Assembly: GCA_964473525.1 (NCBI GenBank)
Contig: CAYYPK010000017.1
Coordinates: 1,992 to 65,991, forward strand
Length of the DNA stretch: 64,000 nucleotides
Source: an uncultured bacterium
GTDB lineage: Bacteria > Poribacteria > WGA-4E > GCA-2687025
Reading direction: 5' to 3'
Numbering within the stretch: position 1 is the first letter of the stretch; every line of letters begins with the position of its first letter. Under the pieces are notes generated by a model, which had not been told where the DNA came from, searched no databases, and saw only the letters and a list, made by a program, of their open reading frames with translations. Of the stretch, positions 4,673 through 27,677 are shown one piece after another. A program made the translations under genes and the position numbers.

Positions 4673-7600
4673 GCACGACCATCCTGCCGTAGCGCGACTC
4701 CGCTCCCGCGCGCAACACGTAGATGTACGTGCCGCTGGCTGCCGTCTCACCCAGCGTGTTCCGACCGTCCCAATGCGCGGCGTTCTCGCGCGTGACGTGT
4801 CGCCCCGCGACGCGGTGGCCGAGATCGATGACCCGCACCATCTCGCCGGTCGTCGCGTATATCTCGATGCTCACGCGCGAGTCCTCGTTCAGCTCGAAGG
4901 GAATCCACGTCTCGGGGTTGAAGGGGTTCGGGTAGTTCGGTAGCAGCGCCGTCGTCGCCGGCACGTCACGGACGAGCCTCGCCATCAGTTCCTGACGCCC
5001 GGCTGGCACGGCCGCCGAGCCTCGCCTCGCCAGATCATGCGTCCCGCCGTATGCCGACAGAGAGATGCGGTATCCTGGCGGCGGGGCGCTCCCGGCCCAG
5101 CGCAGAACGCCCGCGTCCGGGGCGTTCACCACGACCCGCCACTCGGCGCCCTCCGTATCGGCGGGCTTTATGCTCTGCGTGAGACGCGCGACGACATCGT
5201 CCGTCGCGATGTAGAGCGCCGCCCTGGATCCCTGGATAGGAGCCGGGGGCTGCGGCATATCCATCGCGTCGTATCCCGAGGAAGCCTCTGCCGACAGACC
5301 AAGCGTTACGGAGCGAGCCAGCGAGTCGACTCCAGACAGCGCCAGCGTTGCGCTCCAGTCCGGGGTCTCGACATCCGGCGCCGGGTAGAACTGAGTCGTC
5401 GTGCCGGACAGGTGGCGCGCTTGCGTGAGCGTGACGACGCTGTCCGTCGAGTCTGGGTTCAGCGCCCAGTAGCCCTGCCCCTCGGTCAGACTCGTGACGG
5501 CGGCGTACGCCCCTGCGCTGTCGAAGCTGAAGACGCGGTTCGTCGCCCCTCCCGTTAGCAGGCTCGCGGGGGTTACGCCCCACGATTCCGAGTCGTTCTG
5601 CGTTGCTGGCGCGCCTACGAGGTTCCAGCCGGGGCTCAGCGTGACCGATGTCTGCCGCGCGCTCGCGGTGTCCACGTCAAGTTCCAGGGACACGGTCGTC
5701 GTGGCGTCCGAGAACAGGAAGATACCGGTTGACACGGCGTCTACCGCCGACAGGTCCGTCACACCCTCGTACACCTCGCTCGAGGCGTTCCACGTGAAGG
5801 CCGACAGGTTCGCCGCCTCAAGGGCTGTCAGGTCTCCCGCCCCTGGCAACGACAGGAGATGCCAGGTGTCCGCCGTCAGGGAGATATCGACCGGCACGGT
5901 CGTCCGCACGGATGTCTTGTCGACCATGAGCGTCCACGTCTCACTGCTGGACGCCAAGACCGTGCTCGTGAACCCGTTGTTCGCAGCGCTGAGGCTGTAC
6001 GTCTCGCCACTGGAGGCAACGAGGAGAGCGTTGTTGAACGAGCCCGCCGCCGAGAGCAGGGCGTCGATATCCGCCTGTGTCCAAGAGATAGTGACGTCCG
6101 CGTCCTGCGCCGTGAGCTCGTCGACGACCAGGCTCCACTCGAGGGAGTCGCCCGCTGGCGTCGCTAGGATGTCCCGCTCGAGATCGGAGCCAGAGCGCGA
6201 GAACGCCGCGTTGATTATCGAACCGCCACCAGCGGACGCGATGTCGGCAAACGCCGTGTCGACAGCGTCGGACGCGCTCGCCGAGAAACCGAAGGACACG
6301 ACGTGGCTCTCGCCGCCGGAAGCAATCGTCAAGCTCGCCTCCGTGACGGACACAACGGTCACCGTGAACGTCGTCGTGCCGCTCTGTGGGTCGCTCCCGC
6401 CGGCCGTCGTGCCGTCGTCCTGAGCGGTCACGGTGATCGTGGCGCTGCCGGTGGCGTCAGCGACGGGCGTGAACGTCAGCGTGGGGTCCGAGCCGCCTTC
6501 CGTGAAGGGCGACCCGCTGATCGTCGGGTGCGGCACGACGCTGGTCGTGTCGCTGGTCGCCGATATCGTGAGGCTCTGCGTGTCCTCGTCGGACCCACCA
6601 CCGGCGTCGATGCCGGACAGCGTGATCGTGACCGAGCCCAGATCCTCGCCGACCGTCTGATCGGCGACCGCGGTGAACGTCGGCGCGTCGTTGGCTTCGC
6701 TGACGGTCACGCTGACCGTCGCCGCCGCGCTATCCGCCTGTCCGTCGTTCACGGTGAATTCGAACGTGTCGGAGCCGGCGAAGTCCGCTGTCGGTGTGTA
6801 CGTAACGTCGGGCGCCGTGCCGGTTAGCGCGCCGTTGGTCGGCTGTGTAGTCACGGTGTACGTAAGCGTGTCGCCGTCGGCGTCCGTCCCAGCAAGCGCG
6901 ATCGCGAGCGCCGTGTCCTCGGTCGCCGTCACCGACTGCGCCGTTGCGACGGGCGTGGTGTCGTTGTCCGTGATAGTAACGGTGTGCGAGCTCTGCGCGC
7001 CCTCCGTCGCGTTCACCAGAGACGCTCCGTCAAGCGTGGCGATGACGGTCTCGTCGCCTTCCTCCGTCGTGTCGTCAATCACGCTGAACGATGCGGACGC
7101 GCTCGTCGCGCCTGCGGAGATAACGACGCTTGCCGCAGCCAGGCTGTGATCCACGCTGCCACCACTCGCCGTGCCTCCGACGGTGAACGGGGCGGTGACA
7201 TCTCGGCCGCTTGCCGCGCTCAACTCGACCGAGAAGGAGACGGAACCGTCACCCTCGCCGACCGTCTGCGACGCGGACGAGAAAGCCACCGTGGGCGATG
7301 CGTCGTCGTCCGCGACAGTCGTGGTGTGCTCGGTCACGACACCAGCCGTCGCGTTCACGATCGACCCCGTCGTCATCGTGACGACGATCGTCTCATCGTC
7401 CTCGTCCAGCGAGTCGGCGATCAACGAGGCGGTGATGTTGGCGGTGGTCAGTCCGGCGGTGACGGTGAGACTGCCGTCCGCCAGGTCGTGGTCTACGGAC
7501 CCAGCCGTCGCCGATCCCGACACGGTGTACGGCACCGTGATATCGAAGGCGCTCGCGATGTCCAGCGCCACGGCGATGGTGAGTGTCCCGTCGGCCTCGC

Positions 7601-10600: not shown

Positions 10601-13600
10601 ACGGCACGCTGACGTCGTAGCCACTCTCAGCCGCGAGCAGCACAGACAGGGAGACCGTCCCGGCGGACTCAGCGACCGACTGCGACGCCAACGAGAAGGT
10701 CACCGCGGGAGCGTCGTCGTCGTCCACAACCGTGACAGTGTGCGTCGTCGTCGCGCCAGCCGTCGCGTTCACAAGGAAGCCGGTGGTGATGGTCACGATC
10801 GCGGATTCGTCCGGCTCGTCCATCGTGTCGGCGGCGACGGTGAACGCAATGTCTCCGCTGGACGCTCCAGCGCTGATCGTCAGAGAGCCGTCGGCGAGGT
10901 CGTGGTCGGTACCGCTCCCTGTCGCCGTGCCGGAGACGGTGTACGGCACGGTAACGTCGAGGCCGCTCACAGCGCTCAGATTGACCGTCGCCGTGACGGG
11001 CCCCACGGCTTCCGCTGCGTCCTGCGAGCTGGCGGAGAACGTCACGGTCGGCGTAGCGTCGTCGTCCGTGATCGTCAGTGTGTGCTCCGTCGTGGCGCCC
11101 GCCGACGCGTTGGTGAACGAACCCGTGGTCATCGTCACGACGACCGTCTCGTCGTCCTCGTCGAGGGCGTCGTCGGAGACGGTCACGCTTACGGAGCCGG
11201 TCGTCGCCCCCGCAGTGATCGTCAAGCTGCCATCGGCGAGGTCGTGATCGGCGCCGCTGCCTGTCGCTGTGCCGGAGACGGTGTAGGGGATCGTCGCGTC
11301 GAGACCGCTGACCGCGTCGAGCGTGACGCCTATCGTCACGGTCCCGTCGCCCTCGGCGGCCGTCGACGTCGCCGCGTCAAACGTGACGGAAGGCGCGGAG
11401 TCGTCCCCGGTGATCGTGAGCGTGTGCGTCGTAGTCGCCCCTGCCGTCGCATTCGTCAGGGATCCAGTCGTCATGGTGACGATGACCGTCTCGTCGCCCT
11501 CGTAGAGCGTGTCGCCGGTCACGTTCACGGTGAGCGTTCCGCTCGACGAACCCTCAGTGATGGTCAGACTGCCGTCGGCGAGGTCGTGATCCGTGCCGCC
11601 GCCCGTCGACGTGCCGGACACGGTGTAGGGCATCGTGACATCGAGCCCGCTCGCGGCGTCGATATCGACGGAGATGGTCACCGCGCCCGCGCTCTCGAGC
11701 GCGGACTGGGCGCTAGCGGAAAACGCCACGGTCGGTGGGTCGTCGTCGTCGGTGATCGTCAGCGTGTGCGCTGTCGTGGCGCCTGCGGTCGCGTTCGTCA
11801 ACGCCCCTGTCGTCATCGTCACGATGACCGTCTCGTCGTCCTCGTCCAGCGTGTCGGCCGTTACGTTGACAGTGATGTCGCCGGTCGTGGCTCCCGCGCT
11901 AATCGTCAGGCTGCCATCGGCGAGGTCGTGGTCCGTGCTCGAGCCTGTCGCCGTCCCGGTCACCGTGTACGGAACGGTCACGTCCAACCCGCTTGCCGCG
12001 CTCAGAGCCACGGTCACGATGACCGCGCCCACGGACTCGGCCGCCGTCTGCGCGCTGGCGGACAGCGTCACGGACGGCGGCGTGTCGTCATCGGTGATCG
12101 TCAGCGTGTGCGCCGTCGTAGCGCCCGCCGATGCGTTCGTCAGCGACGCCGTCGTGATCGTCGCAATGACCGTCTCGTCGTCTTCAGCCAGGGCGTCATC
12201 CGTCAGCGTGACGCTCAGCGAACCCGTGGTCGCACCAGCCGAGATCGTCAGGCTGCCGTCGGCGAGGTCGTGGTCCGTGCTCGATCCTGTCGCGGTGCCG
12301 GACACGGTGTATGGGATCGTCGCGTCAAGGCCGCTGACGGCGCTCAGCGTGACGCCCACGGTGAAAGTCCCGTCGCCCTCGGCGGCAGTGGATGTCGCCG
12401 CGTCGAACGTGACAGTCGGCGCGGAATCGTCGTCCGTGACCGACAGCGTCTGAGAGGTCGTGGTACCGGAGAGAGCATTCGAGATGGACGCGACCGCAAG
12501 CGTGATGTCCTCGGCGCCCTCGTACAGCGTGTCCGCCACACCCGTGATCGTCACCGTGTCGCTGGTAGTGCCGAGTCCGCCAGGTATCGTGAGCGTCAGC
12601 GTGCCGTCCACGTAGTTCGTGCCGGCAATGGTGTAGTCGGAGTCCTTCGTCGCCACGCCCGATGTCGAGAACACGACACCGACGTCGGAGTCGGACGCCA
12701 ACGCCGCGCCAACGTCGTCCGTCAGGTTAACCGTCAGCGTTACGACGCCCGCGGCCTCGGCGAGCGTCGACGTGTCAACTGCCAGGTCCACGCGCGGGAC
12801 CGACGGGAAGCCCGCGCCGCTGATTGTGCCACCAGTGACCGAGAGACTATCGACCGACGTCGTGCCGTCGATCGTGACCGTGCCGCCGGACACACTCATG
12901 GACGTCGCTGCCAGGTCCGCCCCGTCAGCGACCGAGAACGAGCCGCCGGAAATCGAGAGCGATGCGGCGTCCAGGCTCGCCCCCGACGCGACCGTGACCG
13001 ATCCAGAGAGCACCTCCATGGATCCGGTAACGGCAGCCGTGCTCTGGAAGTCCACGGAGCCACCGTCGACAGAGACATCCGTGAGTGTCGCGGTGCCCTC
13101 GAACGCAATGGAGCCACCCGTGATGCTGAGGCTCGTGACATTCGCCCCGTCGCCCAGCACGACATCGCCACCGGTCATCGTGAAGTCGCCGACATCGGCG
13201 TTATTCGTGAGTGTGAGGGATCCTCCCGACACCGAGAAGTCGCTCACCGCGCCGTTGTTGTCCAGGGAGACGTTGCCGCCCTCAATGACAATAGAACCCG
13301 TGACGTCGGCGCCGTTCGCGAGAGCGAGGTCGCCGGACTCGACCGTCATCGTGCCGCTGAGTTCGGTGCCGTTCGCCAGGTCCAACGACGCGCCCTGGAG
13401 TACCACGGAGCCCGAGAGCACGGCACCATTGTCAAGGGACGCCGTCCCACCTTGCAGCGTGAGGGCACCGGAGAATGTGACGTTGTTCGACCCGCTGAGC
13501 TCGCCGGCCGTCATCGTGATGTCGGTGAGGGCCGTCCCGCCATTGTCAAATCCGACGGAGCCCCCAGCGATCTCCAGTAGGCCTCCGGCGTCTCCGACGG

Positions 13601-13952
13601 ACGCGTTGCTCCCGAAGTCGATGGAGCCGGCGGTGAGTTGGAGGGTTTCGGCCAGCTCCAGACCGTCGAGGTCCGTGCCTGTGCCTTGCGAGTGGAGAAC
13701 CGTCGTCGTGGTGTTGGCATCGCCGTCGTCGATTGAGACGGTGTCGCCAGATTCCGGGATGCGCTGCGCGCCGGACGCGTCAAAGGCGCCAGAGCCGTCG
13801 GCCTCGCGCCAGTTCGTGGCGGTGTGCCAACTGCTGTCGCCGCCCTCGCCAGTCCAGTACAGAGTGGCGGCCGAGCACCACGATGCGTATGCGGTGAATA
13901 CCAGCGCAATGGTTAGCAGTAGGCGCGCGTGCGTCTGACTGCCCGGCTCCAT
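4665..13952 (-). CDS. Giant secreted surface protein of 3095 aa. It has a signal peptide, a beta-helix-like repeat region, about 19 Calx-beta-like repeats, a cadherin-like/VCBS module and a T9SS C-terminal sorting domain.
   Basis: The N-terminus MEPGSQTHARLLLTIALVFTAYASW looks like a signal peptide. Residues about 30-390 are G/S/T-rich short repeats (GGSV.F..G / ANG..L.G) like autotransporter-passenger beta-helix repeats. Next come about 19 units of roughly 100 aa (PYTVSGTATGSGTDHDLADGSLTI.AG...DD.L.E.DETV..T..TGSL.NA.AGATT.HTLTITDDD), which fit the Calx-beta pattern. Then comes a cadherin-like/VCBS module (PVATAQSVTATEDTALAIALAGTDADGDTLTYTVTTQPTNGAL). The last about 85 aa (LPNYPNPFNPETWIPFELNEDSRVSIEIYATTGEMVRVIDLG...WDGRN..GE..ASGTYIYVLRAGAESRYGRMVVLK) match the T9SS type-A C-terminal domain pattern (TIGR04183-like). 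Confidence 0.85.
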   Translation of the reverse strand: MEPGSQTHARLLLTIALVFTAYASWCSAATLYWTGEGGDSSWHTATNWREADGSGAFDASGAQRIPESGDTVSIDDGDANTTTTVLHSQGTGTDLDGLELAETLQLTAGSIDFGSNASVGDAGGLLEIAGGSVGFDNGGTALTDITMTAGELSGSNNVTFSGALTLQGGTASLDNGAVLSGSVVLQGASLDLANGTELSGTMTVESGDLALANGADVTGSIVIEGGNVSLDNNGAVSDFSVSGGSLTLTNNADVGDFTMTGGDVVLGDGANVTSLSITGGSIAFEGTATLTDVSVDGGSVDFQSTAAVTGSMEVLSGSVTVASGASLDAASLSISGGSFSVADGADLAATSMSVSGGTVTIDGTTSVDSLSVTGGTISGAGFPSVPRVDLAVDTSTLAEAAGVVTLTVNLTDDVGAALASDSDVGVVFSTSGVATKDSDYTIAGTNYVDGTLTLTIPGGLGTTSDTVTITGVADTLYEGAEDITLAVASISNALSGTTTSQTLSVTDDDSAPTVTFDAATSTAAEGDGTFTVGVTLSAVSGLDATIPYTVSGTATGSSTDHDLADGSLTISAGATTGSLSVTLTDDALAEDDETVIATITTASLTNASAGATTAHTLTITDDDTPPSVTLSASAQTAAESVGAVIVTVALSAASGLDVTVPYTVTGTATGSSTDHDLADGSLTISAGATTGDITVNVTADTLDEDDETVIVTMTTGALTNATAGATTAHTLTITDDDDPPTVAFSASAQSALESAGAVTISVDIDAASGLDVTMPYTVSGTSTGGGTDHDLADGSLTITEGSSSGTLTVNVTGDTLYEGDETVIVTMTTGSLTNATAGATTTHTLTITGDDSAPSVTFDAATSTAAEGDGTVTIGVTLDAVSGLDATIPYTVSGTATGSGADHDLADGSLTITAGATTGSVSVTVSDDALDEDDETVVVTMTTGSFTNASAGATTEHTLTITDDDATPTVTFSASSQDAAEAVGPVTATVNLSAVSGLDVTVPYTVSGTATGSGTDHDLADGSLTISAGASSGDIAFTVAADTMDEPDESAIVTITTGFLVNATAGATTTHTVTVVDDDDAPAVTFSLASQSVAESAGTVSLSVLLAAESGYDVSVPYTVSGTATGSGTDHDLTDGTLTILAGSTAEVIGFTVTDDALDEEDETAIVTMTTGSLVNASAGAVTTHTATVTDDDDAAAITFDASTSAAAESDGTVTIGVSLSAASAFDVTMPYTISGTATGSSTDHDLADGSLTISAGATTGSLSVALTADALDEDDETVIVTMTTGSLTNASAGAVTAHTLTITDDDATPTVTFDASAATAAESAGAVTIGVTLSAASGLDVSMPYTLSGTATSSGTDHDLADSSLTISAGATTGSLTLTIVDDALNEGDETAIVSMTTGSLSNASAGATTVYTLTITDDDAAPTVAFDSASSTATESAGSVSIAASLSAASGLDVTIPYTVSGTAEGSGTDHDLADGTLTILAGATTGSVDISITMDSLHEGDETVAVTMSTGSLTNATAGATTEHTLTITDNDSAPTVAFDAATSSAVESAGAVTVGISLSAASGLDVTIPYTVSGTATGGGTDHDLADGSLTVVAGATSASASLTVTDDALDESDETVVVTMTTGSLVNATAGATTEHTLTITDNDAAPTVTFDVSSSTVAESDGTVTIGVSLSAASGLDATIPYTVSGTTTGSGTDHDLADGSLTVSAGATTATISVAVTDDAIDESDETIIASMTTGSLVNASAGATTAHTMTVTDDDTATVAFSAATQTVVESVGSVSVVVALSIESAFDVTVPYTVSGTATDSGTDHDLADGSLTINAGDTSGSIAFAVTADSLNEDDETVVVAMTTASLVNASAGATTTHTVTVTDDDAAPTVTFDASASTSAETAGAIAISVSLSAASGLDATIPYTVSGTSAGSGVDHDLADGSLTLFAGATTGSVSLTLSDDALDEDDETIVVSVTTGSLVNASAGATTTHTLTITDDDASPTVTFDASTATAAESAGAVAIGVTLNAVSGRDVTIPYTVSGTSTGGGADHDLAAGSLTVSAGSATGSLTLTVTDDAVDEGDETAIVSMTTGSLVNAGAGATTTHTLTITDNDDASVAFDVSSQTVGEADGTLTIAVALDIASAFDITVPYTVSGSATAGSVDHDLADGSLTVTAGLTTANITASLIADSLDEDDETIVVTMTTGSIVNATAGVVTEHTTTVADDDASPTVAFSSASQTVGEGDGSVSFSVELSAASGRDVTAPFTVGGTASGGSVDHSLAAASVVISAGATSASASFSVIDDTTEEGDETVIATLDGASLVNATEGAQSSHTVTITDNDTTPVATAQSVTATEDTALAIALAGTDADGDTLTYTVTTQPTNGALTGTAPDVTYTPTADFAGSDTFEFTVNDGQADSAAATVSVTVSEANDAPTFTAVADQTVGEDLGSVTITLSGIDAGGGSDEDTQSLTISATSDTTSVVPHPTISGSPFTEGGSDPTLTFTPVADATGSATITVTAQDDGTTAGGSDPQSGTTTFTVTVVSVTEASLTIASGGESHVVSFGFSASASDAVDTAFADIASAGGGSIINAAFSRSGSDLERDILATPAGDSLEWSLVVDELTAQDADVTISWTQADIDALLSAAGSFNNALLVASSGETYSLSAANNGFTSTVLASSSETWTLMVDKTSVRTTVPVDISLTADTWHLLSLPGAGDLTALEAANLSAFTWNASSEVYEGVTDLSAVDAVSTGIFLFSDATTTVSLELDVDTASARQTSVTLSPGWNLVGAPATQNDSESWGVTPASLLTGGATNRVFSFDSAGAYAAVTSLTEGQGYWALNPDSTDSVVTLTQARHLSGTTTQFYPAPDVETPDWSATLALSGVDSLARSVTLGLSAEASSGYDAMDMPQPPAPIQGSRAALYIATDDVVARLTQSIKPADTEGAEWRVVVNAPDAGVLRWAGSAPPPGYRISLSAYGGTHDLARRGSAAVPAGRQELMARLVRDVPATTALLPNYPNPFNPETWIPFELNEDSRVSIEIYATTGEMVRVIDLGHRVAGRHVTRENAAHWDGRNTLGETAASGTYIYVLRAGAESRYGRMVVLK
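7080..12750 (-). repeat. Tandem array of about 19 units of roughly 300 bp encoding Calx-beta-like domains inside the giant gene
   Basis: Near-periodic protein repeats of about 100 aa are visible in the translation. The resulting nucleotide periodicity produces many spurious long antisense ORFs in the ORF track, such as 8349..9665 and 10740..13580. Confidence 0.8.
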
Positions 13953-14578: not shown

Positions 14579-17500
14579 ATGAATGGCTCGAAGAACCAGG
14601 GCGCGGATCGTCTCGCACGGCGCGGGACCGTCACGGCTCTCGCAACCGTCGTAACTGCCACTTTCCTATTCGCCGTGGCTCCATCAGCCTGGACGGCGGA
14701 CGACGACTGGACGGCGACGTTAACGCTGACAGGCGCTCTCACGACCGGTGGCGCCGACGTATCTCGCGCGCTCACGTTCGGCGTGAGCCCGTCAGGGACG
14801 TCAGACTTCGACGACGGGTTGGACGTGGCGAGCCCGCCAGCGGCGCCGAGCCCAAACCCAACCATCTATCTCGAGAACACCGCGCACACGAACACGCACC
14901 TTCAGCAACTCGTCACGGATCTTCGCGCCTTTGAGCCGACGGGCGTCGAGGAGCAGGTATGGTCGCTCTACGTGGACAACCTGGCGCCCGAGGCGTGGAC
15001 CATCGCGTGGGACATCAGCGCCGTCACGACGTACTGGCAGACCGCGCGGATCGTGAACACGACGGCTGGCGTCGACCTCGACATGACCGCCGCCTCTTCC
15101 ACCACGATCGCCGCTGGCGACGCGTACACGTACACGATCACGGTTCGCGAGGACGGCATTCCCGCGTCGGTCGATATCGCGGCAACGACGGCGGAAGACA
15201 CGGCCGGCTCCATCACATTGACTAGCGAAGACCCCACCGTAGACACGTACACCGTCCTGACGCAGCCCACCAACGGGACGCTGACCGGCACGGAACCCGA
15301 CATGACGTACACCCCCGACGCTGACTGGGTGGGGGAGGACTCGTTCACGTACCAGGCGGATGACGGCATCCTCCAGGACAGCGCCACGGTCACAATCACC
15401 GTCACCGAGGTGAACGACGACCCGACGATTAGCGCCATCACGGATCCCGCCGACGTACTCGAAGACTCCGGCGTGTCGTCCTCGATCACCATCGCCGGGC
15501 TGGGCCAGGGCGGCGGGGTGGATGAGACCAGTGGCGTCGACGTGCAGACCCTCACGTTGGCGGCCACAAGCGGCAATACCGCGCTCATCGCGGACGCCGA
15601 CCTCGACCTTAGCGCGACCACATGGACGACCGGCGATGCGGACCCAACCGTTACGTTCACGCCGACGGCGGACATCAGTGGCACGGCGGTTATCACGATC
15701 ACGGCCACCGATGACGGCACAACGAACGGCGGGCCCGATGTACTCGACGTCACAGCGACGTTCACCGTCACCGTGACGGACGTGAACGACGCCCCCACGA
15801 TTTCCACCATCACCGACCCGGCAGACGTGGCGGAGGACTCGGGCGTATCCGCGGACGTCACGATCGCTGGCCTCGGCGTTGGCGGCGCGGCGGATGAGGC
15901 TGCGGCCCAGACGCTGACTCTCTCGGCGTCCAGCAGCGATGAGACGGTCGTCGCTGGCCTGACGCTATCAACCACCACGTGGGTGGACGGCCAGGCGAAC
16001 CCGACGATCACCTTCACGCCAACCGCAGATGCCAACGGCACGGCTGTGATTACCATCACGGCCACGGACGACGGCACGTCGAACAGTGTCCCGGCCGTGT
16101 TGGACGTCACGACCACCTTCACGGTCACGGTCACCGAGGTGAACGACACGCCCACCATCGGCTCCATCAACGACCCGGCCGCCGTGGACGAGGACTCTGG
16201 CACGTCAGCTGCAATCACTATCTCTGGCCTTGGCGTTGGCGGTGGGGCAGATGAATCGGCCGCGCCCCAGACGCTGACGCTCGTGCCGACGAGTTCCGAT
16301 CAGACGCTGGTACCTGACGCCAACCTGACCCTAAGTGCCACAACCTGGGTTACGGGTGACGCCGACCCGACGATCACGTACACCCCAGCGGACGAGGCAA
16401 ACGGGACTGCGGTCATCACCATCACCGCGACCGACGATGGCACGGACGACGGCGTCGCGGCCGAGTTGGACATCTCGACGACGTTCACCGTCACCGTCAC
16501 GACGCTGAACGACGCGCCTACATTCGACGCGCTGGCGGACATCAGCGTGGCGGAAGACGCTGCGGAGCAGACGGTGTCCATCACCACGGTCAGTCCTGGG
16601 CTGAGCGCGGACGAGTCGGGTCAGACCGTCACGTTTACCGTCGCAAGCGGCGACACGGCGATCATCGCCGACGCCGACCTCGCGATCTCTGGCACGGGCG
16701 CGACGCGCACGCTGACGTACACCCCGACCGCGGACGCGGTTGGCGATGTGACGATCACCGTCACGGCAGACGACTCGCAGGTTCTCAACAACACGACAGT
16801 CGACTCGTTCGTCGTGACCGTCACGGAAGTGAACGACGTCCCAGCCGTCGACGCGATAGGTGACCAAATCATCGCCGAAGGCGTTACCAACTCCGTTACC
16901 GTCGCCGGGCTGCTCGCGGGAGGCGCGACGGACGAGGACGCACAAATCCTCACACTGTCCGCCACCAGCGACACTCCGGGCGTCGTGCCCGACCCGACGT
17001 TCGACGACGCGTCGTTCGTCGAGGGCGACACCGACCCGACGCTGACGTTCACGCCCATCGGCACAGGCACGGTGACGATCACCGTCACCGCCGAGGACGA
17101 CGGCGCGGATGACGGCGTCCTCAACGCGCAGAGCATCACTACCACGTTCCAGATTACCGTCGTTCCCGTGTTTGATGCCGATCTCACCGTCTCCACGGGC
17201 GCCGAGAGCCACGCGGTGACGTTCGGATTCTCTAGTAGCGCCACCGACACGGTGGACCTCGGGTTCGCCGACGAAATCACGGACTCCAGCGGTCCGACGA
17301 TTAGCGTCTCGTTCTCCCGCGATGGCAGTGGTCTGAAGAAGGACATCATCGGCACTCCAAGCGGGACGGCGACATGGTCGCTAACCGCAGAGAACCTTAG
17401 CGGGTCCGCCGCGTCCGTAGGCTTTGCCTGGACACAGAGCGAGATCGACAACCTGCTGTCAGTGGCCGGCTCCTACAACAACGCGTTCCTCGCCGACGAC

Positions 17501-18854
17501 TCGTCGGGGGACACGTACAACATGAGCTCCAGCCAGAACGGCTTCTCGATCAGCGTCGCGGGATCCAGCACCCTGAGCATGACGCTCACGTTGGAGCTGT
17601 CGGCGACACGCACGGGAACACCGGTCAATATCTCCCTGACGGCCAACGAGTGGCACACGATCTCGCTGCCGGGATCGGGCGATCTCACCGACCTGGACGC
17701 GGTGAACTTGTCCGCCTTCACGTGGAACGCCACCAGCGAGGTGTACGAGGCCCTCGGCGCGATGAGCGGCCTTGGGGTCGTCTCGCAGGGCGTCTTCATG
17801 GCGTCGAGTTCGTCGACGACGGTCTCGCTCGAGCTGGATGTCGACGACTACGCGTATCGCAGCGTGGACGTCACGCTCAGCCCAGGCTGGAATCTCGTGG
17901 GAGCTCCGGCGTCCCAGAACGACTCCACGTCGTGGGGAGACGCCACCGCTGATCTCCTGAGCGGGGGCTCGGCCAACCGAGTGTTCGCGTTCACGTCGTC
18001 CGCTGGCTACACCGTTGCCACGACGTTGAGCGAAGGCGTTGGCTACTGGGTGCTGAACCCAGACGGCTCCGACTCCGTGGTGTCGTTGACCCAGGCGCGT
18101 CACCTTAGCGGAACGACGACGCAGTTCTTCCCCGCGCCCGCCTTGCCGGCGATGCAGTGGGAAGTGCCCGTTGTCATGCGCCCGCACGGCGGAGCCGCGC
18201 GCGAACTCACCCTCGCATCCGCCCGCGACGCCTCGGACGACTTCGACGACTTCGACTTGCCGCAGCCGCCGCCAGCCTTCGGCTCCGACGGCGTGCAGTT
18301 CTACGTGCGCGCTCCGCACCCGGTTCGCCGGATGACCCGGGCGGTGTTGCCCGTGGGACACGGCGAGGGCGAGTGGTCTGTCGTTGCCGACGCTCCGGCA
18401 GGGGGGCGCCTACGTGGAGTGGAATTCGGACCTGATCCCCGAGCACTTCCGGGCGATCGTGACGGCGAACGGCGTCCGGTACGACATGCGCGAGACCAGG
18501 GGGATACGACTGCCAGAAGGCGCGCACGAACTGCGCGTGGTGATGTCGTGGACCGCGCCAGAAATGACGCGGGCGCTCCCGAACTTCCCCAACCCATTCA
18601 ACCCCGAGACGTGGATTCCGTTTGAACTGGACGAGGCCGCGCGCGTTATGGTGAGTGTCCACGACACGCGTGGCGCTCTCGTGCGGCGTCTCGACCTCGG
18701 CTATCGCGAGCCTGGCTACTACACGGACAGGTCAACGGCGGCGCACTGGGACGGGAGAAACGCGCTGGGCGAAACCGTGGCTAGTGGCGTCTACTTCTAC
18801 GTCCTCGAAGCTGGGGAACACCGTGTCGCGCGCCGAATGGTCATCCAGAAGTAA
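14579..18854 (+). CDS. Large secreted cadherin-like repeat protein with a T9SS C-terminal domain. As assembled it is interrupted by a +1 frameshift in a G6 tract at 18401-18406 and appears as track ORFs 14387..18625 and 18384..18854.
   Basis: The preferred start is ATG 14579 (MNGSKNQGADRLARRGTVTALATVVTATFLFAVAPSAWTA, a signal peptide), in frame with the track start 14387. The protein has five cadherin-like units of about 120 aa (VNDDPTISAITDPADV...TFTVTVTDVNDAPTI). Its C-terminal about 400 aa module is paralogous to the C-terminal region of gene 4665..13952. The T9SS CTD (LPNFPNPFNPETWIPFELDEAARVMVSVHDTRGALVRRLDLG...WDGRNALGETVASGVYFYVLEAGEHRVARRMVIQK) is reached only after a frame change at gcaGGGGGGcgcc. 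Removing one G gives ...APAGGAYVEW..., which aligns with the paralog. Confidence 0.7.
15410..17170 (+). repeat. About five tandem units of roughly 360 bp encoding cadherin-like/VCBS-type domains
   Basis: The repeated boundary motif TFTVTVT[DE]VND[DAT]P[TA] occurs at about 15415, 15785, 16145, 16510 and 16835. Confidence 0.7.
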
Positions 18855-18991
18855 CGTGGGTCGCACACAGCCGATCTAGCAAGACGGGCTTACGTTGGCG
18901 TGCCGACGTAGGTCCGTTTTCGCGTGCGAGCGACTTTTGGTGTAGAGTCCATGGGATTGGGCTTGACGCTCCGTGACGAGATGGGGAACTG

Positions 18992-21900
18992 ATGTCTACC
19001 GCGCGGATACGCCGCTTGTCGATCTCGCTTATCACGGTCGCTGCTCTGGCGTTCGCGACGCTTTCCTCTTCCGGAGTAGAGCCCGCCGACGGACTCGGCG
19101 CCGTTTCGGAGAGCAACTGGGCGCTGGAGGTCTCGTTTGCGGGGGTCGCGGGAGGTCGTGACCGCACCCTTACACCTGTCGAGCTGGGAGTGCATCCGGC
19201 GGGAACAGGCAGCTTCGACCAGGGCATCGACCTGCTGCTACCTCCGCCGAATCCCGGCCCACTAGTGCCCGACGCGTATCTGTTCGACGCGGACGCGCCC
19301 TCATTTCTGCAGCGACTCACCCGCGACATGCGGGACACCCCAGCGTCGTCCCTCGACACGATGACGTGGACGCTCGTCTTCGAGAACAACGCCGAAGCCG
19401 ACTGGACGATGGGCTGGAATACCGCCGGCATGCCCGACCGGTGGGCGCCCCTGCGCATGCGCAGCGATGACATGGACATCGACATGCGCGAGGTGGGCAC
19501 GGTGGTAGTGCCGTCTCAGACCGAGGTGATCTTCACAATCGAGGCCACGCTACAGGACGAGGGCGACATCCTCGTCGCTCGAGGTCTTGCCGAACACCGC
19601 GCAACCTCGGAGACGGACCCACGGGCGATCGACCTCGCTGGCGACGACCCCGTCTTCGTCAACACCCTCGATCCGGGAGCCCCTGTTGCCGTGGAGGCGG
19701 TGTCCTCGGACCCCGACATCGTCAGCGTGTCCGTCGAAGACAACGAAGTCGTGCTGACGTTCGGAGAGCCGGGCGACGCGGTCATAACAGTGCAGGCCGT
19801 CAACGATGACGGCTCGCCGGGGCCAGCGGTGGACTTCCCGGTCCTCGTGCTTGCCGACGACGAGAACAACGAACCGCCGATTGTCGAGCCCATCCGCCCG
19901 ATCGTGATGGACGAAGGCGTCCGCGCCACTGTGGTCGTCGACGCGGTGGACCCCGACGATGACCCCGTGTTCGTGAGCGTTGTCAGGGTGAGATCCGCCA
20001 CTGGAGGGGGGGGCTCCCGCCCTCACGGTGTCTCTGGACCGCGACCTTCCGCAGGTCCACCTCGACGCTGGCGCCGTCGACAAACGCGGTGAGCGTTTCC
20101 TTGTGGACCTCACCGTGGAGGACGGCATCCACGAGCCGGTGCCGGTCGAATTCCTCGTCCTCGTACGTAGCGGCAACGAGCCGCCCGCTATTGGCGCGCC
20201 GGAGTCGCTGACGGTCGCGTCAGGCGAGGACGCCGTCATCAACGTCGTCGCCACCGACCCAAACGCGGGGGACGCCGTCGTGCTAACGGCCGTCCTTCGT
20301 GGGAGCTCTGGACCGACGACATCCGCGCTTGCCGCCGCCATCCGGACATTCAACCAGGCCGACGCCGTCGAAGCCGGGGGCTCGTTCACGAAGTCGTTTG
20401 TGTACACGGTCGAGCCGGAGCTTGAGGGGACGTACGCGGATATATGGTGGACCGCCGACGACGGCTTCGCGTCCACGTCGTCGGGTACGCAGCTCATCGT
20501 GGGAGACGTGAATCTGCCGCCGGAGGTCGAGCCCATCGACCCGCAAGTGGTGGAAGAGGGCGGCTTCCTCGAGGTTGCCATCGTCGCCTCGGACCCCGAG
20601 GGTGGGCCACTGACGGCGCGCGTGACAGGGATGCCCGAGGGTGCGTCGTTCGACCCGAACACGTTCGTGTTGCGGTGGACGACGATCCCGTTCGGAGCCG
20701 CCGGGCGCCACCTGCTCACCCTACGTCTCGTGGACGAGGGCGGGGCCAGCAAGACGTGTCCGATCAACATCACCGTCACCGATGTCAACCAGCCGCCCAC
20801 GATCGTCTTGGGGGACTCCACCGACGCGGAGGGAGTGATGTCCGAGTTGACGGTCGTACGCGGCCTCGAAAGCGTCTATGTGGCGCAGGCGTACGACGCG
20901 GACGGCGACGACATACAACTCCGGATAGCCGGCCTGCCAGAGTGGGTGCGCGGACGTCGCATCGGTGATCGGCGGAACCCGACGGCGATCCTTCAGTTGC
21001 AGGCGTTGGAGGACTCAGAGCCGTTCTCGTTCGTGCTCACGGCGACCGACCCGGAGGGCGTGTCCGCCGAAGAGACCGTGTCCGTGCTCATCGAGGATCC
21101 GCCGAACCTGCCCCCGCGCATCGAGGCGCCCCTGTCCGTGTCGGCCCAGGCCGGAGACATCGTCGATGTATTCGTGCCAGCGGTGGACCCCGACGAGGAG
21201 CCGCTGACGCTCACCATTGAGCCGCAGCCTGCCGGTCTCTCGTCGTCCGAGCAGGAAGGCGGCTTTCGCCTCACGTGGCGCACCGAGGAAGCCGACGCGC
21301 GTGACGAGCCATACGTGCTCACACTCACCGTGGCGGATGACGAAGGGGAGGAGGCTGCGGCCGTGTTCGTCATCACGGTCGAACAGCCAGCCAACCGACC
21401 CCCAACGGGAGGCGACCCGCTCCCAGTAGTCGTTGAGGAGGGTGACACGGTCGTGCTCGACCTTCTCGCTGGCGTCTTCGACATCAATGGCGATGTGCTG
21501 ACGGCGGAGCTGACAACCGATCTGCCACCGAGCGCCTTCTCATTCGACACCGCGGCGGGCATCGCCACGCTGACCGTGTCTCCGGCCGCCGGCGACGCCG
21601 GGGCGTACACGGCAGAAGTAACCATCAGCGACGGACGCGGCGGGCGGCTGGTCCACGGCTGGTCGGTCACCGTCCCGGCGGAGGTCACCGGACAGCTGCA
21701 GATCCTGTCGACCACGCCAACCATCATCGAGAGCACCGCGTTGGGCGGGTATCGGTTCATCGCTGTCATCACCACCCCGAACGGCGAGGATCCCGACAGT
21801 GTGGGTCTTACCGTAACCCACAACGACGGCGTGTCACGCCAGCTCGAAATGTCCGCTACCGGCGTAGGGGATCTCCTCGATGGGGCGATCTTCGCGGTCA

Positions 21901-24900
21901 CGACGCGTCTTGCGGAAGGCTCCTACACGTACACGGTGGATCTGACGCTGAACGGCGAGGTGCAGACTCTGTCCGGTGACGGGCCTCGAGTGGGATCGAC
22001 GCTCGTGCAGCTTACGCAGGTCCGCGCGCTGGGGCGTTCGGGCGAGATTCCGTTCGCCTACGCGCTCCTGTACCCCAACCCGACAGGACGGGCGAACCTC
22101 GCGGTGGACTACCGGCGTCAGGCGGGGGATCCGTGGACGCCCGCCTCCGTAACCGGCGACCTCATCGAGGTGACGAGTGGCGTCCAGCTTACTTTCGTGT
22201 GGGATTCCGCCGCCGATGTGCCGGACGCTGCGTCCGAACCGATCCAGATACAGGTCACGCCCGAGAACGGGATTCCCCGTGTGCTGACGCTTCTGGTGGC
22301 GAACGTCCCACCGGCGGCGCCGACGCTCGACCTCCTGCCGCCGTCCTCGGTGACGACGGTGCGGGTCACGGGCCGCAGCGATTCACCAGGGGCGAACGTA
22401 GACATCATCACGCAGGACGGGGACGTCGTCGGCAGAGCGTTCGTGGAGTCAGATGGTCTGTTTGCCGTCACGGTCACACTGCCCGAGGGTCGGAGCCTCC
22501 TGAGCGCCATCGCGTCGCTGCCGACGGATGTTGACGAAAACGGGCCGCGCAGTCTCGCGTCTCGTCCCATTGAGGTCGTGGTTGACCCGGAGCCTCCGAC
22601 GCTTGCGGTCGCTTCTCCCGCGCGGAAGTCCACCGTGGCGACGCGCACTCCGACGATATCCGTCCGCGCGGACTTCGGCATCAGCGGCGGCGAGATCGAC
22701 TCCGCCGACATGCGCGTGAGCGGCAAATCCGTGCCGGTCGAGTATTCCCCGGAGAGCGGCGTGTTTACGGCGTCGAGGGAACTGCCCGACCTGCGGGTGG
22801 TGCTGGTTACCTTCGTCGTGCGCAAAGCGAACGGTCTGTCGTCCTCCGTGGCGTGGACGTTCACGGTAGATCTGTCCGCCGACGACGTTACGGCGCCTGA
22901 AGTTGCGGGCGTCCGACCACGTGGCGTGGCGCGTCGCGTGGCACGCGTAGAGGCTACGCTCAGAGACGGCGAATCCGGCGTGGACGCGGACAGCATTGAG
23001 ATCACGTTGGACGGCGACAGTCTTGCCCCCACTTTCCTGCTCAGCGACGCGCGCAACGGGCTCGCCGTCGCGGACATCCCCGATGAGCTCGCCCCGGGCG
23101 ACCACGAGATCGTCATCACGTTCGCCGACAGAGCTGGCAATGAGACAACGGCGACGAGGCGATTCAAGATTGCCGACGCCGTACAGCCACCGTCGTTGGA
23201 CGACGACTTCGACTTCTCACCCACGAATTCACCGAACGCGACACTCAGCGGCTCGGCGGAGCCCAACGTCGATGTGGCCGTGTTCGTCGGCAATGACCTC
23301 GCGGGAGTCGCTCCCGCGGACGAAGAGGGCGCCTGGGAACTGGACATCACGTTCGGCGCCGAAGGCTCCCACGTCATCCACGCGCAGGCGCAGGACGCTT
23401 CCGGCGTGAAGTCGACGGGCGTCGTGTTCGGCGCCGTAATCTACGACCTGACTCCGCCACGCGTCGTTGTCGCGGTTCCCGCGCTGGGTTCCGTCACGGG
23501 CGATCTCGATCCCGTCTTCATCGGCACGGTCTCGGACGGACTGAGCGGGGTAGACCCGGACACGTTCCTGTTCTCAGTGGGCTCTCCGTCGACGGCGACG
23601 TATGACGAGGCGACCGGACAGTTCACCGCGCAGGCGGACGATCCGCTTGCCAACAACTCGTCGGTGACAGTCGTCGTGACCGCGTCCGACCTGGCGGGCA
23701 ACGTCGCCACGCTCGAAGGCCCGGTGACCCTTGACGCGCGCTTGGGCGACGCCACGCCCCCAGCCATCCTGTCGGCGTCCATCGACGGATCGGCCCTCGC
23801 CGAGGGCGCGACTCCGGTGGTTCGCTCACTTCCGGCGACCGTCGCTCTGAGCGTCGTCGATGACCGGTCGGGTGTAAGCGGCGTCGCCGGCTTGCTGGAC
23901 GGCGAGGAGATCGAATTCACCGTCGAGGGCGACGCTGCAACGCTCGTCGTGGACGGTCTCGCAATCGGCGAGCACATTCTACTCGTGCGCGCCTCCGATA
24001 CGGACGGCAACATCGCGACGGTGCGCAGGTACACGTTTGCCGTCGGCGCGGCGCTGGCCGCTCCGTCCATTGACGCGCCCGCCGTGACATCCAACCCCGA
24101 CCTCACCATCACGGGCGTGGGCATCCCACCGTCGGTAGACTTCCGGTTGCTTGTGAACGACGCGCCGGTTGACGTGTCTGTCGTTGGTGATGCCTTCACC
24201 TCCGCCCCCGCCCGCTTGCAGGAGGGTGAGAACACAGTCGCCGCGATAGTCGAGGACACTGCGGGGGAGATCGCGCAAGCGGCCTCCGTCGTCCTTCTGG
24301 ACACGCAGGCGCCGCGCGTGACCTTCCTGGAGCCGATAGCCGGGGCCGCCGTCGGGCCGCAGGCAGACACTGTTCGCGTGCGCTTTGACGACGACACGGA
24401 GGTCGACGTCGGCTCCGCTCGCCTGACGCTCGACGGGGAAGAGGCGCCACTGACGGACCTGGATGGCGTCACCGCCGAATACGTCGCGGCCGAGCCGTTC
24501 GCCGCGGCGGAAGTGGACGCCGTCGACGCGCGCCCGCGCTTCGCCCGCGCGGTTGTCCGCGATACGGCTGGGAACCTGGGCTCGGCGAGTATCGCATTCG
24601 TCGTGGACACCACCGCTCCGTCCATTGAGGGCGTCATGCCTGCGAACGGCGAGGTGGCGCAGACGCTCGAACCCACCGTGTCAGCATCCATCACCGCGAG
24701 AGATGTCGACCCGACAACGCTGGAGGTGCTATTCGGACCGCAGGGCGACACGATGGTGTCCGTCGTGGGCGACGCCAACTTCGAGTACCTCGTCTCCGTC
24801 GACACGTTCGTCTACGTCCCACTCGTCGAGGACGGGGGAACGTACGACGTGCTCGTCCGGGTAGCCGATCAGGCTGGGAACGTCGCCGAGAGCGCGTGGA

Positions 24901-27677
24901 CGTTCAGCGTGGACACGCAGCAGATCGACGAGGTGGCGCCCATCATCACGGTGCTTTACCCGAAGCCGGGGCAGGCCATCAACGACGGCGGGCTCGACAA
25001 CCTGTCGTTCTCGCTTGGGGACGCCGCCGGAGTAGACCCGAGCCGCGTGCATCTCTTCGTGAACGACCCTACGGGCGCCGCCCCTCTTCCCCTTGGCCGC
25101 TTGGAGGAAGAAGGCATCGCGCAGTTCAACCGGTCCACTGGGGTGGTGCGTATCCTTGGTCGCCGGCTCTTCCGCCCCTACCAGGGCGCGCGCGGCGGCT
25201 TCTCGTTTGACCCACTGGAACTCAACGCCCTCGAGCGATCCCTGACGGGCGGCGAGGCCTCCTTCGACCCATTGGAACTCAACGCCCTGGAACGCAACTT
25301 GTCGGGCGCCGACGCGGCGTTCGAGCCTCCCGAGGCGAACACCATCGCCAGTTCGTTGGGCCAGAGCGGCGGCGGACTATCCTCGTCGTTGGAACGCTCT
25401 CTGAATACGGGTGTGGGGCTGCTCGGGCGGGGCGAGAACACCATGGGTGTGCAGGTCGCCGACCTGTCCGGGAACGTCTCGTTCGCCACGTGGTCGTTCT
25501 CCGTGTCGCTCGATCCGCCAGCGGCGCCGGTGTTCGACGATCGCGGAGCGTCAACGGGTGACCAGCTGACGACGGTCGCCGGCCACGTCCCTGGTCTGCT
25601 GACAGGAGAGACGCTCCCAGTAGTCGTGGACCTGCGTGTGAACGAGGTGTCCGCCGGTCGCGTCGAAGTGACCACTACGGACGGACGCTTCGCGTTCACT
25701 AACGTCAGCATCGTCGCGGGCGACAACGTAATGACCGCCACGGCGGAAGACAATGCCGGCAACCTCAGCAACCGCTCCGATTCAATGACGCTCGTCGGCG
25801 ATCTGGTCGCCCCGGTTGTAACGCTGCTGTCCACACCGTCCGCGCTGCCCACGAATCAGTTCACGCTCAGCGGCAAGGTGGCGGATGACCGCAACGAGAC
25901 GCCGGCGTCGGTGACCGTCAAGCACAACGACACAACCATCGAGCTCGGGGCGGCGCTTGGTTCGTTCAACCAGCTCGTGACACTTGACCCAGGGGCGAAC
26001 ACGCTGTCCGTGGAGGCGGTAGACCCCGCCGGGAACGTCGGTTCCTCCCCAGAATTCACGATCACCATCGACGACACATCGCCGGAGACCGCGCCTGCGA
26101 GCGTCACGGCGCGCCCGACGTCTGACGGCAGAGGCATAGCCCTGTCCTGGGCGGCGGACACGAACGCTTCGAAGTACGTGGTGTACCAGTCGTCGAGCTT
26201 CTTCACGGACGCGACGAACGCCGACCGGATCGCCGAGTCGGTGAGTGGCACGTCGCACACCGTCACGTCGATCGAGTACGGGGCCACGCGGTACTACGGC
26301 GTCGGGTCCGCCGACGCTGCTGGGAACACCGATCCCGCCGTCATATCTCCTGTCATCAACGTGGCGCTGATGGATCAGCGGGGCGGCACGGCGTCGCTTG
26401 CTGACGGCACGCGGTTGACGGTGGCATCTGGAGGTCTGTTCACGAGTCCATTGCAGACGGCTACCGTGTCCCTCACGCTTCCCGACAGCGAAACACCACT
26501 AGGGCTCGCCCTCGACGGCACCACGCGCGAGGTGGCCGCGTACGCGTCATCGGGAGCCGCGGTTGGGAACTTCGAGCGCCTTCCGTCGCTGCGCATACCT
26601 GTCGACGCCGATGTCGACCTTGTGGATGAGCCACCCGTGATGCGGCAGCAGTCCGGCGCCACGTGGGAGAAGCTCGACAGCGCGCAGGATGTCGTCGGTC
26701 GCGCTGTCACCGCCGATGCGCCATCGCCTGGCACGTACCGACTCACGGAGGACGGTGACCTGTCCCCACCGTGGGACGTGAACGGCGATGGGGTCGTCAA
26801 TATCATCGACCTCGTGACGGTGGCGCGTGACTTCGGTCAGAGCGTCTCCGTGGGAACTCCATCCGACACCAACGGTGATGGTCTCGTCAACATCATCGAC
26901 ATCGTGACGGTGGCGTCCCATTTCGGGGAGGACGCCTTCCCCGCGGCGCCGTCGCGCTCCATGCCAACGGGCTCGGACGCGACGGTGTCCCTGCGGCTGC
27001 TGCCCGCTACGTCGGGCCGACCGTTCGCGCAGGTCGAGGTCCACGCCAGCGCCACGACGCCCATTGCCGGCTACGAATTCCGGGCCGGTGTCGATCCGTC
27101 GAGAGCGACACTCGTGGACGTACGGCGCGGCGACCTGCTCCCGGAGCGTTCCTTCTGGATGCAGCCGGTGGTCGCAGGCGGCTCCGCACACGTCGCCGCC
27201 GTCCGACTCGACCTGGCAGGCGGGCCGTCTAGCCCCGCGCGGGACGGCGTGCTGGCCCGCATCACCCTGGACGCCAACGCCCCAGACGCGAGCTTGGTGC
27301 AGTTGCGCGACATCCGTCTCAGCGATGCCCGAGGGAACTTGATTCCACACCGCGTGCTGTCGCCCCGGGTTGCGAACGGAGCGTATCGCACCGCGCTGCT
27401 GCCCAACTTCCCGAACCCGTTCAACCCCGAGACGTGGATTCCCTTCTCCCTAGAAGCCGAGAGCGACGTCACCGTCCGCATATACGACACGACGGGCGCC
27501 CGCGTACGCACGCTCCACCTTGGCAAGCGTGCTGCGGGTGAATACGCCAAGCGCGGAGACGCCGCCTACTGGGACGGACGCAACGAACGGGGCGAGAGCG
27601 CCGCGAGTGGCGTCTACTTCGTCGAGTTGCGCGCTGGCGACACACGCGTGGTGCGCCGCATGGCGATTTCGAAGTAG
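18992..27677 (+). CDS. Giant secreted multi-domain protein of about 2890 aa when joined. It has dystroglycan-type cadherin-like (NxPP) domains, Ig-like/FN3 domains, a dockerin-like repeat pair and a T9SS C-terminal domain. As assembled it is interrupted by a frameshift in a G8 tract at 20006-20013 and appears as track ORFs 18992..20092 and 20028..27677.
   Basis: The N-terminus MSTARIRRLSISLITVAALAFATLSS looks like a signal peptide. Repeated NEPP.I / N.PP motifs are typical of cadherin-like CADG domains. An FN3-like segment is present (APASVTARPTSDGRGIALSWAADTNASKYVVYQS). Dockerin type I-like repeats are DVNGDGVVNIIDLVTVARDFG and DTNGDGLVNIIDIVTVASHFG. The C-terminus is a T9SS CTD (LLPNFPNPFNPETWIPFSLEAESDVTVRIYDTTGARVRTLHLG...WDGRNERGESAASGVYFVELRAGDTRVVRRMAISK). 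Removing one G from the G8 tract gives a continuous ...SATGGGAPALTVSLDRDLPQ... reading frame. Confidence 0.7.

Follow-up and report, generated by a model that had tools for sequence, protein, structure and literature searches.

Two adjacent genes for giant adhesin-like proteins in an uncultivated Candidatus Poribacteria bacterium are each thrown out of frame by an additional G within a short poly-G run. With moderate confidence, we read these lesions as ordinary, non-programmed null alleles (i.e. young or incipient pseudogenes) that arose by slippage and became fixed in a clonal population.

Two giant surface-protein genes each carry one extra G

The window (the whole 64-kb stretch of DNA that was analysed) contains gene 1, which is an intact paralogue, and the broken genes 2 and 3 (Table 1). 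As sequenced, gene 2 runs in one frame from an ATG at 14579 to a stop at 18623-18625 (1348 aa), with 72 out-of-frame codons after codon 1276. Its +1 frame has no stop from 18336 to 18854 and encodes the C-terminal domain. Gene 3 extends from an ATG at 18992 to a stop at 20090-20092 (366 aa), the 26 codons after codon 340 being out of frame, and its +1 frame has no stop from 19992 to 27677; the nearest one lies just 15 nt upstream of the G8 tract. Shortening G6 to G5 restores gene 2 as a single 1424-aa ORF (junction peptide ...APAGGAYVEW...), and shortening G8 to G7 restores gene 3 as a single 2894-aa ORF (...SATGGGAPALTVSL...; junction peptide SATGGGAPALTV), both with zero internal stops. Beyond the added G, neither gene contains a second lesion (stop or indel). 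These results bear out a previous sequence-only reading of this DNA, which had proposed that two genes were each broken by one extra G, at coordinates that proved exact, and that deletion of one G would give long ORFs.

Table 1. Positions in the window of the three giant genes and the two G tracts
Feature	Position	Strand	Description
Gene 1, intact paralogue	4665..13952	-	3095 aa; same C-terminal module as genes 2 and 3
Gene 2, upstream part	14579..18406	+	Native frame to codon 1276
G6 tract	18401..18406	+	+1G frameshift site in gene 2
Gene 2, downstream part	18408..18854	+	+1 frame; remainder of pre-CTD domain and FlgD_ig / T9SS-type-A-like C-terminal domain
Gene 3, upstream part	18992..20013	+	Native frame to codon 340
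G8 tract	20006..20013	+	+1G frameshift site in gene 3
Gene 3, downstream part	20013..27677	+	+1 frame; 2554 codons, stop-free

All three proteins have hydrophobic N-termini with Ala-rich ends (judged by eye). In gene 1, the signal-peptide-like N-terminus is followed by 16 Calx-beta stretches, Big_9/cadherin-like sequence, a pre-CTD domain and a FlgD_ig/TIGR04183-like C-terminal domain; in L009, gene 1 has one additional Calx-beta repeat (114 aa). The upstream part of gene 2 encodes a signal-peptide-like N-terminus, an N-terminal domain common to gene 3 and cadherin-like/Big_9 repeats, while that of gene 3 encodes its signal-peptide-like N-terminus and the N-terminal domain. Downstream of its tract, gene 3 encodes Big_13, Big_6, Big_9, He_PIG, dockerin and cohesin-like domains and a FlgD_ig / T9SS-type-A-like C-terminal domain. 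The downstream frames of genes 2 and 3 therefore do hold the sorting-type C-terminal domain that had been assigned to them. No repeats of the invertible-promoter style were found in the intergenic regions 13900-14620 and 18800-19050.

Homology is continuous across both junctions

Gene 1 and five homologues could be aligned with repaired gene 2 across its junction, confirming the proposed match of the APAGGAYVEW segment with the intact paralogue. Repaired gene 3 aligned on both sides of the tract with two orthologues (P0002 and P0003), and was colinear with the L011 orthologue over 2815 aa. Because homology runs continuously across each junction, each shift can be placed at its tract. To judge from these alignments, the ancestral state of genes 2 and 3 is a single ORF, and both are truly disrupted in frame relative to their intact homologues. 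Gene-calling programs give the downstream ORFs GTG or ATG starts of their own, with lengths of 2481-2549 aa in gene 3 and 68-146 aa in gene 2, as would be expected if the N-terminal pieces and the downstream ORFs were translated independently as separate working proteins. We consider such split genes very improbable, since the downstream pieces would lack a signal peptide (by inspection) and the homologues are all single chains. The break also splits a conserved domain in gene 2, and in gene 3 it lies in a linker of what is otherwise one colinear protein.

The tracts are absent from the corresponding positions in homologues. The G8 site reads GGG ACC GCT CAG GAC GGC GAG in the orthologues and the G6 site reads GAC GCG GGC in gene 1. 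Both tracts are, by this comparison, lineage-specific and without conservation in the orthologues or the paralogue. Homologous giant genes of related Poribacteria are broken by lesions other than slippage, each case being a single assembly: the L094 gene has an in-frame TAG inside its Big_9/cadherin domain, and the L011 orthologue of gene 3 has a 1-nt deletion, relative to L012, outside any tract. In a HMMER scan of representatives, the only close orthologues were the clone's own split fragments. A genome collection gave zero matches when scanned with the gene 3 N-terminus alignment, and only relatives at no more than 66% identity when scanned with the neighbouring acetyl-CoA synthetase.

The absence of the sites from homologues also bears on recoding, i.e. 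a programmed +1 shift by the ribosome, or slippage during transcription of the G runs, that would yield full-length proteins from genes functional as sequenced. Both sites require an identical +1 shift, GGG-GGG permits perfect P-site re-pairing, the runs are Shine-Dalgarno-like (AGGGGGG and GGAGGGGGGGG), and the frameshifted allele is fixed with downstream ORFs intact. G-rich runs of this kind are reminiscent of the prfB stimulator, and prfB-type +1 frameshifting shares with these genes both the +1 shift and a G-rich Shine-Dalgarno-like stretch at the site. However, the A-site codons here, CGC and GGC, are neither stop codons nor slow or rare ones, and the orthologues and paralogues lack the sites and are plainly in frame. 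G runs also support transcriptional slippage poorly relative to A/T runs. No conserved site with recognisable stimulators was apparent in the orthologues, and we regard recoding as improbable.

The frameshifts are reproduced in other assemblies

The frameshifts are genuine. The same G6 was present in nine, and the same G8 in ten, other metagenome assemblies from ENA, JGI and Logan, which came from three pipelines (ENA SUTE22-1, three samples; ENA SCRA20-1, two samples; Logan SRR8062318; JGI 3300008625/8627/8735/7765). The sequence-only reading had worried that the two tracts might be sequencing artefacts. Homopolymers are indeed error-prone on some platforms, and the window is part of a 142-kb NCBI contig of a metagenome-assembled genome. 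Yet it is scarcely credible that the extra Gs came from sequencing or assembly and that the true genome has intact ORFs, given identical tracts across different samples and pipelines and given that the remaining G6/C6 runs and 71 G5/C5 runs of the window break no gene. In agreement with the earlier claim, the remaining genes of the window look intact. At 48.8-50.5 kb and 50.6-53.0 kb, pairs of ORFs that overlap on the same strand were suspected of frameshifts and proved to be tandem PhyH and PD40 paralogues.

The compared assemblies are essentially one clone, with approximately zero polymorphism over 14 kb. Since they differ only in scaffold Ns and contig-end noise, with zero informative SNPs, within-population dN/dS is not computable. 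No tract-length variant occurred among the nine (G6) and ten (G8) other assemblies at the consensus level, where minority variants of the ON length are invisible. The 90% protein cluster of the downstream fragment had no full-length member, comprising only fragments of 2524, 2549, 434 and 142 aa. A metagenome collection gave zero matches to the gene 3 N-terminus alignment, and likewise to the DNA pattern CCGCCACTGGA-N4-14-CTCCCGCCCTCAC, which allows any tract length, so zero variants were recovered from it.

G runs are depleted and the tracts show no length variation among assemblies

Five G/C runs of at least 6 are present in the window, two of them being the frameshift sites, and the G8 tract is the sole run of at least 7. 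The position of the frameshifts at these runs is not chance. Even after repair, the G7 of gene 3 is the longest run in the window and the G5 of gene 2 is among the seven longest runs in that gene. Compared with synonymous shuffles, coding G/C runs of at least 6 are under-represented approximately 10-fold (3 observed, 32 expected), and coding runs of at least 7 number 1 against an expected 7.6. Further G6 tracts, at 49026 and 57644, are in frame, and a C6 run at 46192 is in frame within a small ORF.

The sequence-only reading had taken the two tracts for candidate phase-variation switches. As true slipped-strand contingency loci, they would alternate between ON (G5/G7) and OFF (G6/G8) at a useful rate, with OFF dominant in the samples. 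Several features suit such loci: both tracts lie within ORFs where a change of one unit alters the frame, the products are giant repeat proteins of surface type whose C-terminal domains are of export type, and each gene has a single lesion with its long downstream ORF wholly kept. The usual cut-off for poly-G/C tracts in phase-variable loci is at least 7 (PhasomeIt; PMC6321876), which is reached by the G8 of gene 3, itself the one exception to the strong avoidance of runs. In contrast, the G6 of gene 2 falls below this cut-off, and in relatives the homologues were knocked out by a nonsense codon and by a deletion outside any tract. Homopolymers are rarer than expected, not commoner, and this ~10-fold depletion, with the absence of the tracts from the orthologues and the paralogue, appears to speak against selective tract maintenance. 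Nor did tract length differ between samples from several projects at the consensus level, and the ON-length protein is absent from the 90% cluster. The contingency loci of Campylobacter jejuni and Neisseria (PMC6321876) offer a direct comparison: there too an intragenic G tract sets the frame of a surface-structure gene, and the G8 tract is of the usual length, but the tracts described here are unconserved, with no length variation observed, one has only 6 Gs, and they occur where homopolymers are avoided.

We therefore consider phase variation unlikely as an account of these tracts. All available consensuses, as distinct from reads, carry the frameshifted length, and since the earlier reading had itself held that a uniform frameshifted length would indicate fixed pseudogenes, its proposal is not borne out. 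Somewhat more doubtful still is that this Poribacteria lineage switches two giant adhesin-like proteins with a T9SS-like C-terminal domain by poly-G slippage, with OFF dominant in all sampled populations.

The C-terminal domain is T9SS-like but the export route is doubtful

The C-terminal domains scored 23.0 (gene 1), 22.8 (gene 2) and 27.9 (gene 3) against TIGR04183, for which the cut-off is 23. Scores for PF18962 (20.5 and 20.4) were under the gathering threshold of 27, and those for PF13860 FlgD_ig (34.6 and 35.3) exceeded the cut-off of 27. Like the T9SS type A cargo of Bacteroidota (TIGR04183 / PF18962), these proteins combine a signal-like N-terminus, long adhesin-type repeats and an ~80-aa C-terminal domain of beta-sandwich type. 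They differ from it in that the C-terminal domain is a FlgD_ig match at about the TIGR04183 cut-off, with PF18962 under threshold, and in that they come from a Candidatus Poribacteria bacterium. Poribacteria single-cell genomes have been reported to contain TIGR04183-type domains and to lack the structural genes for Por secretion (PMC3909097). No T9SS machinery (SprA/Sov, PorV, PorU or GldKLMN) was found among the genes of the window. Because the host belongs to a group in which Por/T9SS genes are reported missing (PMC3909097), 'T9SS cargo' is a doubtful label for these giant proteins and is an unproven assumption.

Fixed null alleles as the favoured explanation

We propose that replication slippage in a short G run added one G to each gene, converting G5 to G6 in gene 2 and G7 to G8 in gene 3, and that both insertions became fixed in a nearly clonal natural population. 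Each lesion would have fallen at the site most prone to slippage in its gene, or at one of the most prone, and the genes themselves are large, encode surface proteins and are probably dispensable. Gene 2 would then yield a secreted-type protein without the conserved C-terminal module and gene 3 only its N-terminal stub, so that normal display of both adhesin-like proteins would be lost, probably with no selected switching function.

Some observations run against null alleles. Neither gene has acquired a second lesion, gene 3 remaining open for 2554 codons, and a reversible switch or functional recoding predicts the same. This argument is weak, because 14 kb of sequence from the population is essentially free of polymorphism, and the frameshifts may be too young to have accrued more damage. 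Other signs of relaxed constraint in genes 2 and 3 were likewise lacking, with zero further stops or indels and zero informative SNPs among the assemblies, a comparison that has little power. In addition, both lesions are of one kind (+1 G) and affect adjacent surface-protein genes that belong to one functional class, where contingency loci are classically found, and a G8 length is hypermutable in some bacteria and could in principle revert. Fixed null alleles nevertheless resemble the homopolymer frameshift pseudogenes that host-associated or clonal bacteria have among their genes for large surface proteins. The features in common are one base inserted into a short mononucleotide run, a product cut short compared with intact homologues, fixation in the lineage with reproducibility between sequencing efforts, and assorted lesions in relatives. 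The difference is that secondary decay is absent here and relaxed selection is unmeasurable without polymorphism.

If switching were true, the two tracts would be the first contingency loci reported for Poribacteria, a phylum in which no T9SS machinery has been found, and tract heterogeneity in reads would add an uncultivated phylum to those with homopolymer phase variation. The case also underlines a question from 2014, namely by which route poribacterial proteins with TIGR04183-like domains are exported when Por/T9SS genes are not found. If the lesions are fixed null alleles, their value is mostly practical: the two genes of this metagenome-assembled genome are genuinely broken, not misassembled, and deserve annotation as pseudogenes, in a phylum whose giant surface-protein genes are repeatedly caught with single inactivating lesions.

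One extra G interrupts each of two giant adhesin-like genes

Two of three neighbouring giant genes for adhesin-like secreted repeat proteins (genes 1–3) are each broken by one extra G, as the sequence-only reading had recognised. The G runs at the frameshifts are six long in gene 2 (G6; GCA-GGGGGG-CGC) and eight long in gene 3 (G8; GGA-GGGGGGGG-CTC). Deletion of a single G restores uninterrupted ORFs of 1424 aa in gene 2 (…APAGGAYVEW…) and 2894 aa in gene 3 (…SATGGGAPALTVSL…; junction peptide SATGGGAPALTV). As sequenced, gene 2 comprises 1276 native codons and a 72-codon out-of-frame tail (GGRLRGVEFG…), and gene 3 comprises 340 native codons and a 26-codon tail (GGGGSRPHGVSG…).

Features of the window (window positions)
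Feature	Position	Strand	Details
Gene 1	4665–13952	-	3095 aa, intact
Gene 2 as sequenced	14579 (ATG)–18625	+	1348 aa
Gene 2, +1 frame	18336–18854	+	open
G6 tract	18401–18406	+	gene 2
Gene 3 as sequenced	18992–20092	+	366 aa
Gene 3, +1 frame	19992–27677	+	open
G8 tract	20006–20013	+	gene 3
Copies of the ~150-aa domain	14700–15100; 19080–19500; 18150–18600; 4900–5350
Tandem paralogue sets	40322–44121; 48033–50467; 50595–52951		three MFS transporters, three PhyH-family dioxygenases, two PD40 beta-propeller proteins
Pup-proteasome locus	53194–58482	-	complete; Poribacteria genome
Proteasome subunits (two)	53194–53910; 53976–54824	-
Small pup-like ORF	within 54.85–55.07 kb	-	ends …QRGGE
Pup ligase family protein	55129–56655	-
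Mpa/ARC-type AAA ATPase	56683–58482	-

Alignments to gene 1 and to five homologues from databases run through the junction of repaired gene 2, with invariant Trp residues to either side. Just 15 nt upstream of the G8 tract of gene 3, a stop codon closes the +1 frame, and two orthologues (P0002 and P0003) align with the repaired product on either side of the tract. A further orthologue, on a contig of another assembly (L011; Logan SRR28417441), is colinear with repaired gene 3 over 2815 residues at 62% identity. From these alignments and the upstream stop, the ancestral state of both genes is a single ORF, and the G tracts are where the two frames shift. Programmed +1 frameshifting at the G runs could in principle read through them, since both sites require a +1 shift and GGG-GGG allows re-pairing beside a Shine–Dalgarno-like G stretch. 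The codons in the A site (CGC and GGC), however, are ordinary and the shift sites are not conserved, making such recoding unlikely.

Domain architecture and resemblance to T9SS cargo

Gene 1 encodes 16 Calx-beta stretches with Big_9/cadherin-like domains, gene 2 cadherin-like/Big_9 repeats, and gene 3 Big_13, Big_6, Big_9, He_PIG, dockerin and cohesin-like domains. All three share a terminal domain of ~80 aa (LPN[FY]PNPFNPETWIPF...WDGRN..GE..ASGVY...RM.I.K) that matches FlgD_ig (PF13860) above threshold. A second, uncharacterised domain of ~150 aa (G..S.FD.G.D.P.PP.P ... W.L.V ... W), for which we found no Pfam match, makes up the N-terminus in both gene 2 and gene 3 (E 4e-12). Ahead of the C-terminal domain of gene 1 and of gene 2 it occurs again (E 5e-7 to 1e-3), and it is also present in many Poribacteria homologues.

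The proteins had been described as T9SS cargo. Their C-terminal domains do resemble the T9SS type A model TIGR04183, scoring about at its cut-off of 23 bits (23.0, 22.8 and 27.9 bits for genes 1, 2 and 3, respectively), but they score below threshold against PF18962. No T9SS component was found among the genes of the 64-kb window. Kamke et al. 2014 reported a TIGR04183-like domain in many poribacterial proteins without the Por secretion structural genes, and left their export route open (PMC3909097). Given the missing Por genes in that work and the lack of a component in the window, the cargo label describes a resemblance rather than an established membership.

The best named homologues all carry the label Candidatus Poribacteria, for gene 2 and gene 3 and also for the Pup ligase (identities of 92, 75 and 72%). 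Pup ligase homologues are widespread across Poribacteria MAGs, and the PafA proteins of some lineages (P0006, P0140 and P0141) reach 90–94% identity. A literature search on the sample accessions gave no match, and a sponge-symbiont label is not asserted.

The frameshifts are shared by other assemblies and fixed in one clone

The extra Gs might have been sequencing or assembly artefacts, a worry voiced when they were first noticed. The exact 366-aa truncated gene 3 product, or a 358-aa alternative call, is encoded in contigs of ten other assemblies: five from ENA (three SUTE22-1, two SCRA20-1; samples SAMN10231919/22/23 and SAMN11854482/85), one from Logan (SRR8062318) and four JGI metagenomes (3300008625/8627/8735/7765). 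On direct inspection, all ten carry G8, and each of the nine that cover the gene 2 site carries G6. Furthermore, the remaining window genes are intact, as had been claimed, including acetyl-CoA synthetase, prolyl oligopeptidase, the MFS transporters and the Pup-proteasome locus. An artefact is therefore essentially excluded. Overlapping ORF pairs that looked like further frameshifts proved to be tandem paralogues; both PD40 proteins end in KLPTMWGELKW. A word-indexed protein search missed the window's own fragments (1348 and 2524/2549 aa) despite hundreds of shared identical residues, and lack of long matches in it is not evidence of absence from the collection.

The assemblies are 99.9–100% identical to the window over 14–28 kb; what little differs comes from scaffold Ns or noise at contig ends. 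They represent one near-identical clone; the frameshifts are therefore fixed in this clone, and polymorphism for a selection test is absent. The lack of secondary lesions in genes 2 and 3 has little dating power; a neutral 13-kb target would be expected to gain its next disabling mutation at roughly 0.1% divergence, far above the diversity here. Gene 1 encodes 3209 aa in a SUTE22-1 scaffold (SAMN10231923; L009 1–9374 / L003), a difference of 114 aa, or one Calx-beta repeat, from the window. Either the number of repeats truly varies, or near-identical repeats of ~340 nt were collapsed in one of the assemblies.

Recurrent inactivation fits better than a phase-variable switch

G/C homopolymers are strongly avoided in the coding sequence of the window (G+C ~66%). 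Runs of at least 6 number 5 in the window against 33 expected under a first-order Markov model; two of them, G6 runs at 49026–49031 and 57644–57649, are in frame. After repair, the ~55.7 kb of coding sequence holds 3 runs of at least 6 and 1 of at least 7, compared with 32 and 7.6 in synonymous-codon shuffles; for runs of at least 5, 58 were observed and 130 expected. Such avoidance points to selection in this organism against sequence prone to slippage. In repaired gene 3, the G7 is the longest single run of the whole window, and the repaired G5 is among the seven longest of gene 2; replication slippage would be expected to place first mutations at such runs.

Genuine slipped-strand phase variation, as originally put forward, would be consistent with intragenic, frame-toggling tracts in two surface-type genes with one lesion each, and G8 meets the cut-off of at least 7 for phase-variable poly-G/C loci (PMC6321876). 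G6 falls below this cut-off, however, the 9–10 other consensus sequences contain no tract-length variant, the downstream fragment's protein cluster at 90% lacks a full-length member, and G/C runs are depleted, not enriched. Neither tract is shared: in the proposed comparison with related genomes, orthologues lack G8 (GGG ACC GCT CAG GAC GGC GAG), and the paralogous gene 1 of the window lacks G6 (GAC GCG GGC). Phase variation thus seems rather doubtful, and is entertained mainly for G8.

Homologous giant genes of related Poribacteria each carry a different single lesion, each seen in a single assembly. The closest gene 2 homologue (P0020; 50% identity) lies on L094 (Logan SRR27277814), where an in-frame TAG (3071–3073) inside a Big_9/cadherin-like domain (…SLTYTVST*PTNGALSGT…) is all that separates it from an upstream 1023-aa Calx-beta-rich ORF in the same frame, which makes this a nonsense-interrupted giant gene. 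At the site equivalent to G8, the L011 orthologue of gene 3 is unbroken. At ~2036–2050, ~630 nt past that site, it has a 1-nt deletion relative to contig L012 (GGTTGAGGGC to GGTGGGGGC), which splits it into 550 aa and >2268 aa, with the downstream frame otherwise intact.

Together, the different lesions in relatives, the absent length variation and the depleted runs fit an evolved switch less well than repeated, unprogrammed inactivation of genes that are very large and probably dispensable. On balance, we lean towards slippage-derived null alleles. Single-G slippage at the G runs would have broken gene 2 and gene 3, and the broken alleles would then have become fixed in a clonal Poribacteria population as incipient pseudogenes, a new example of an already known kind.
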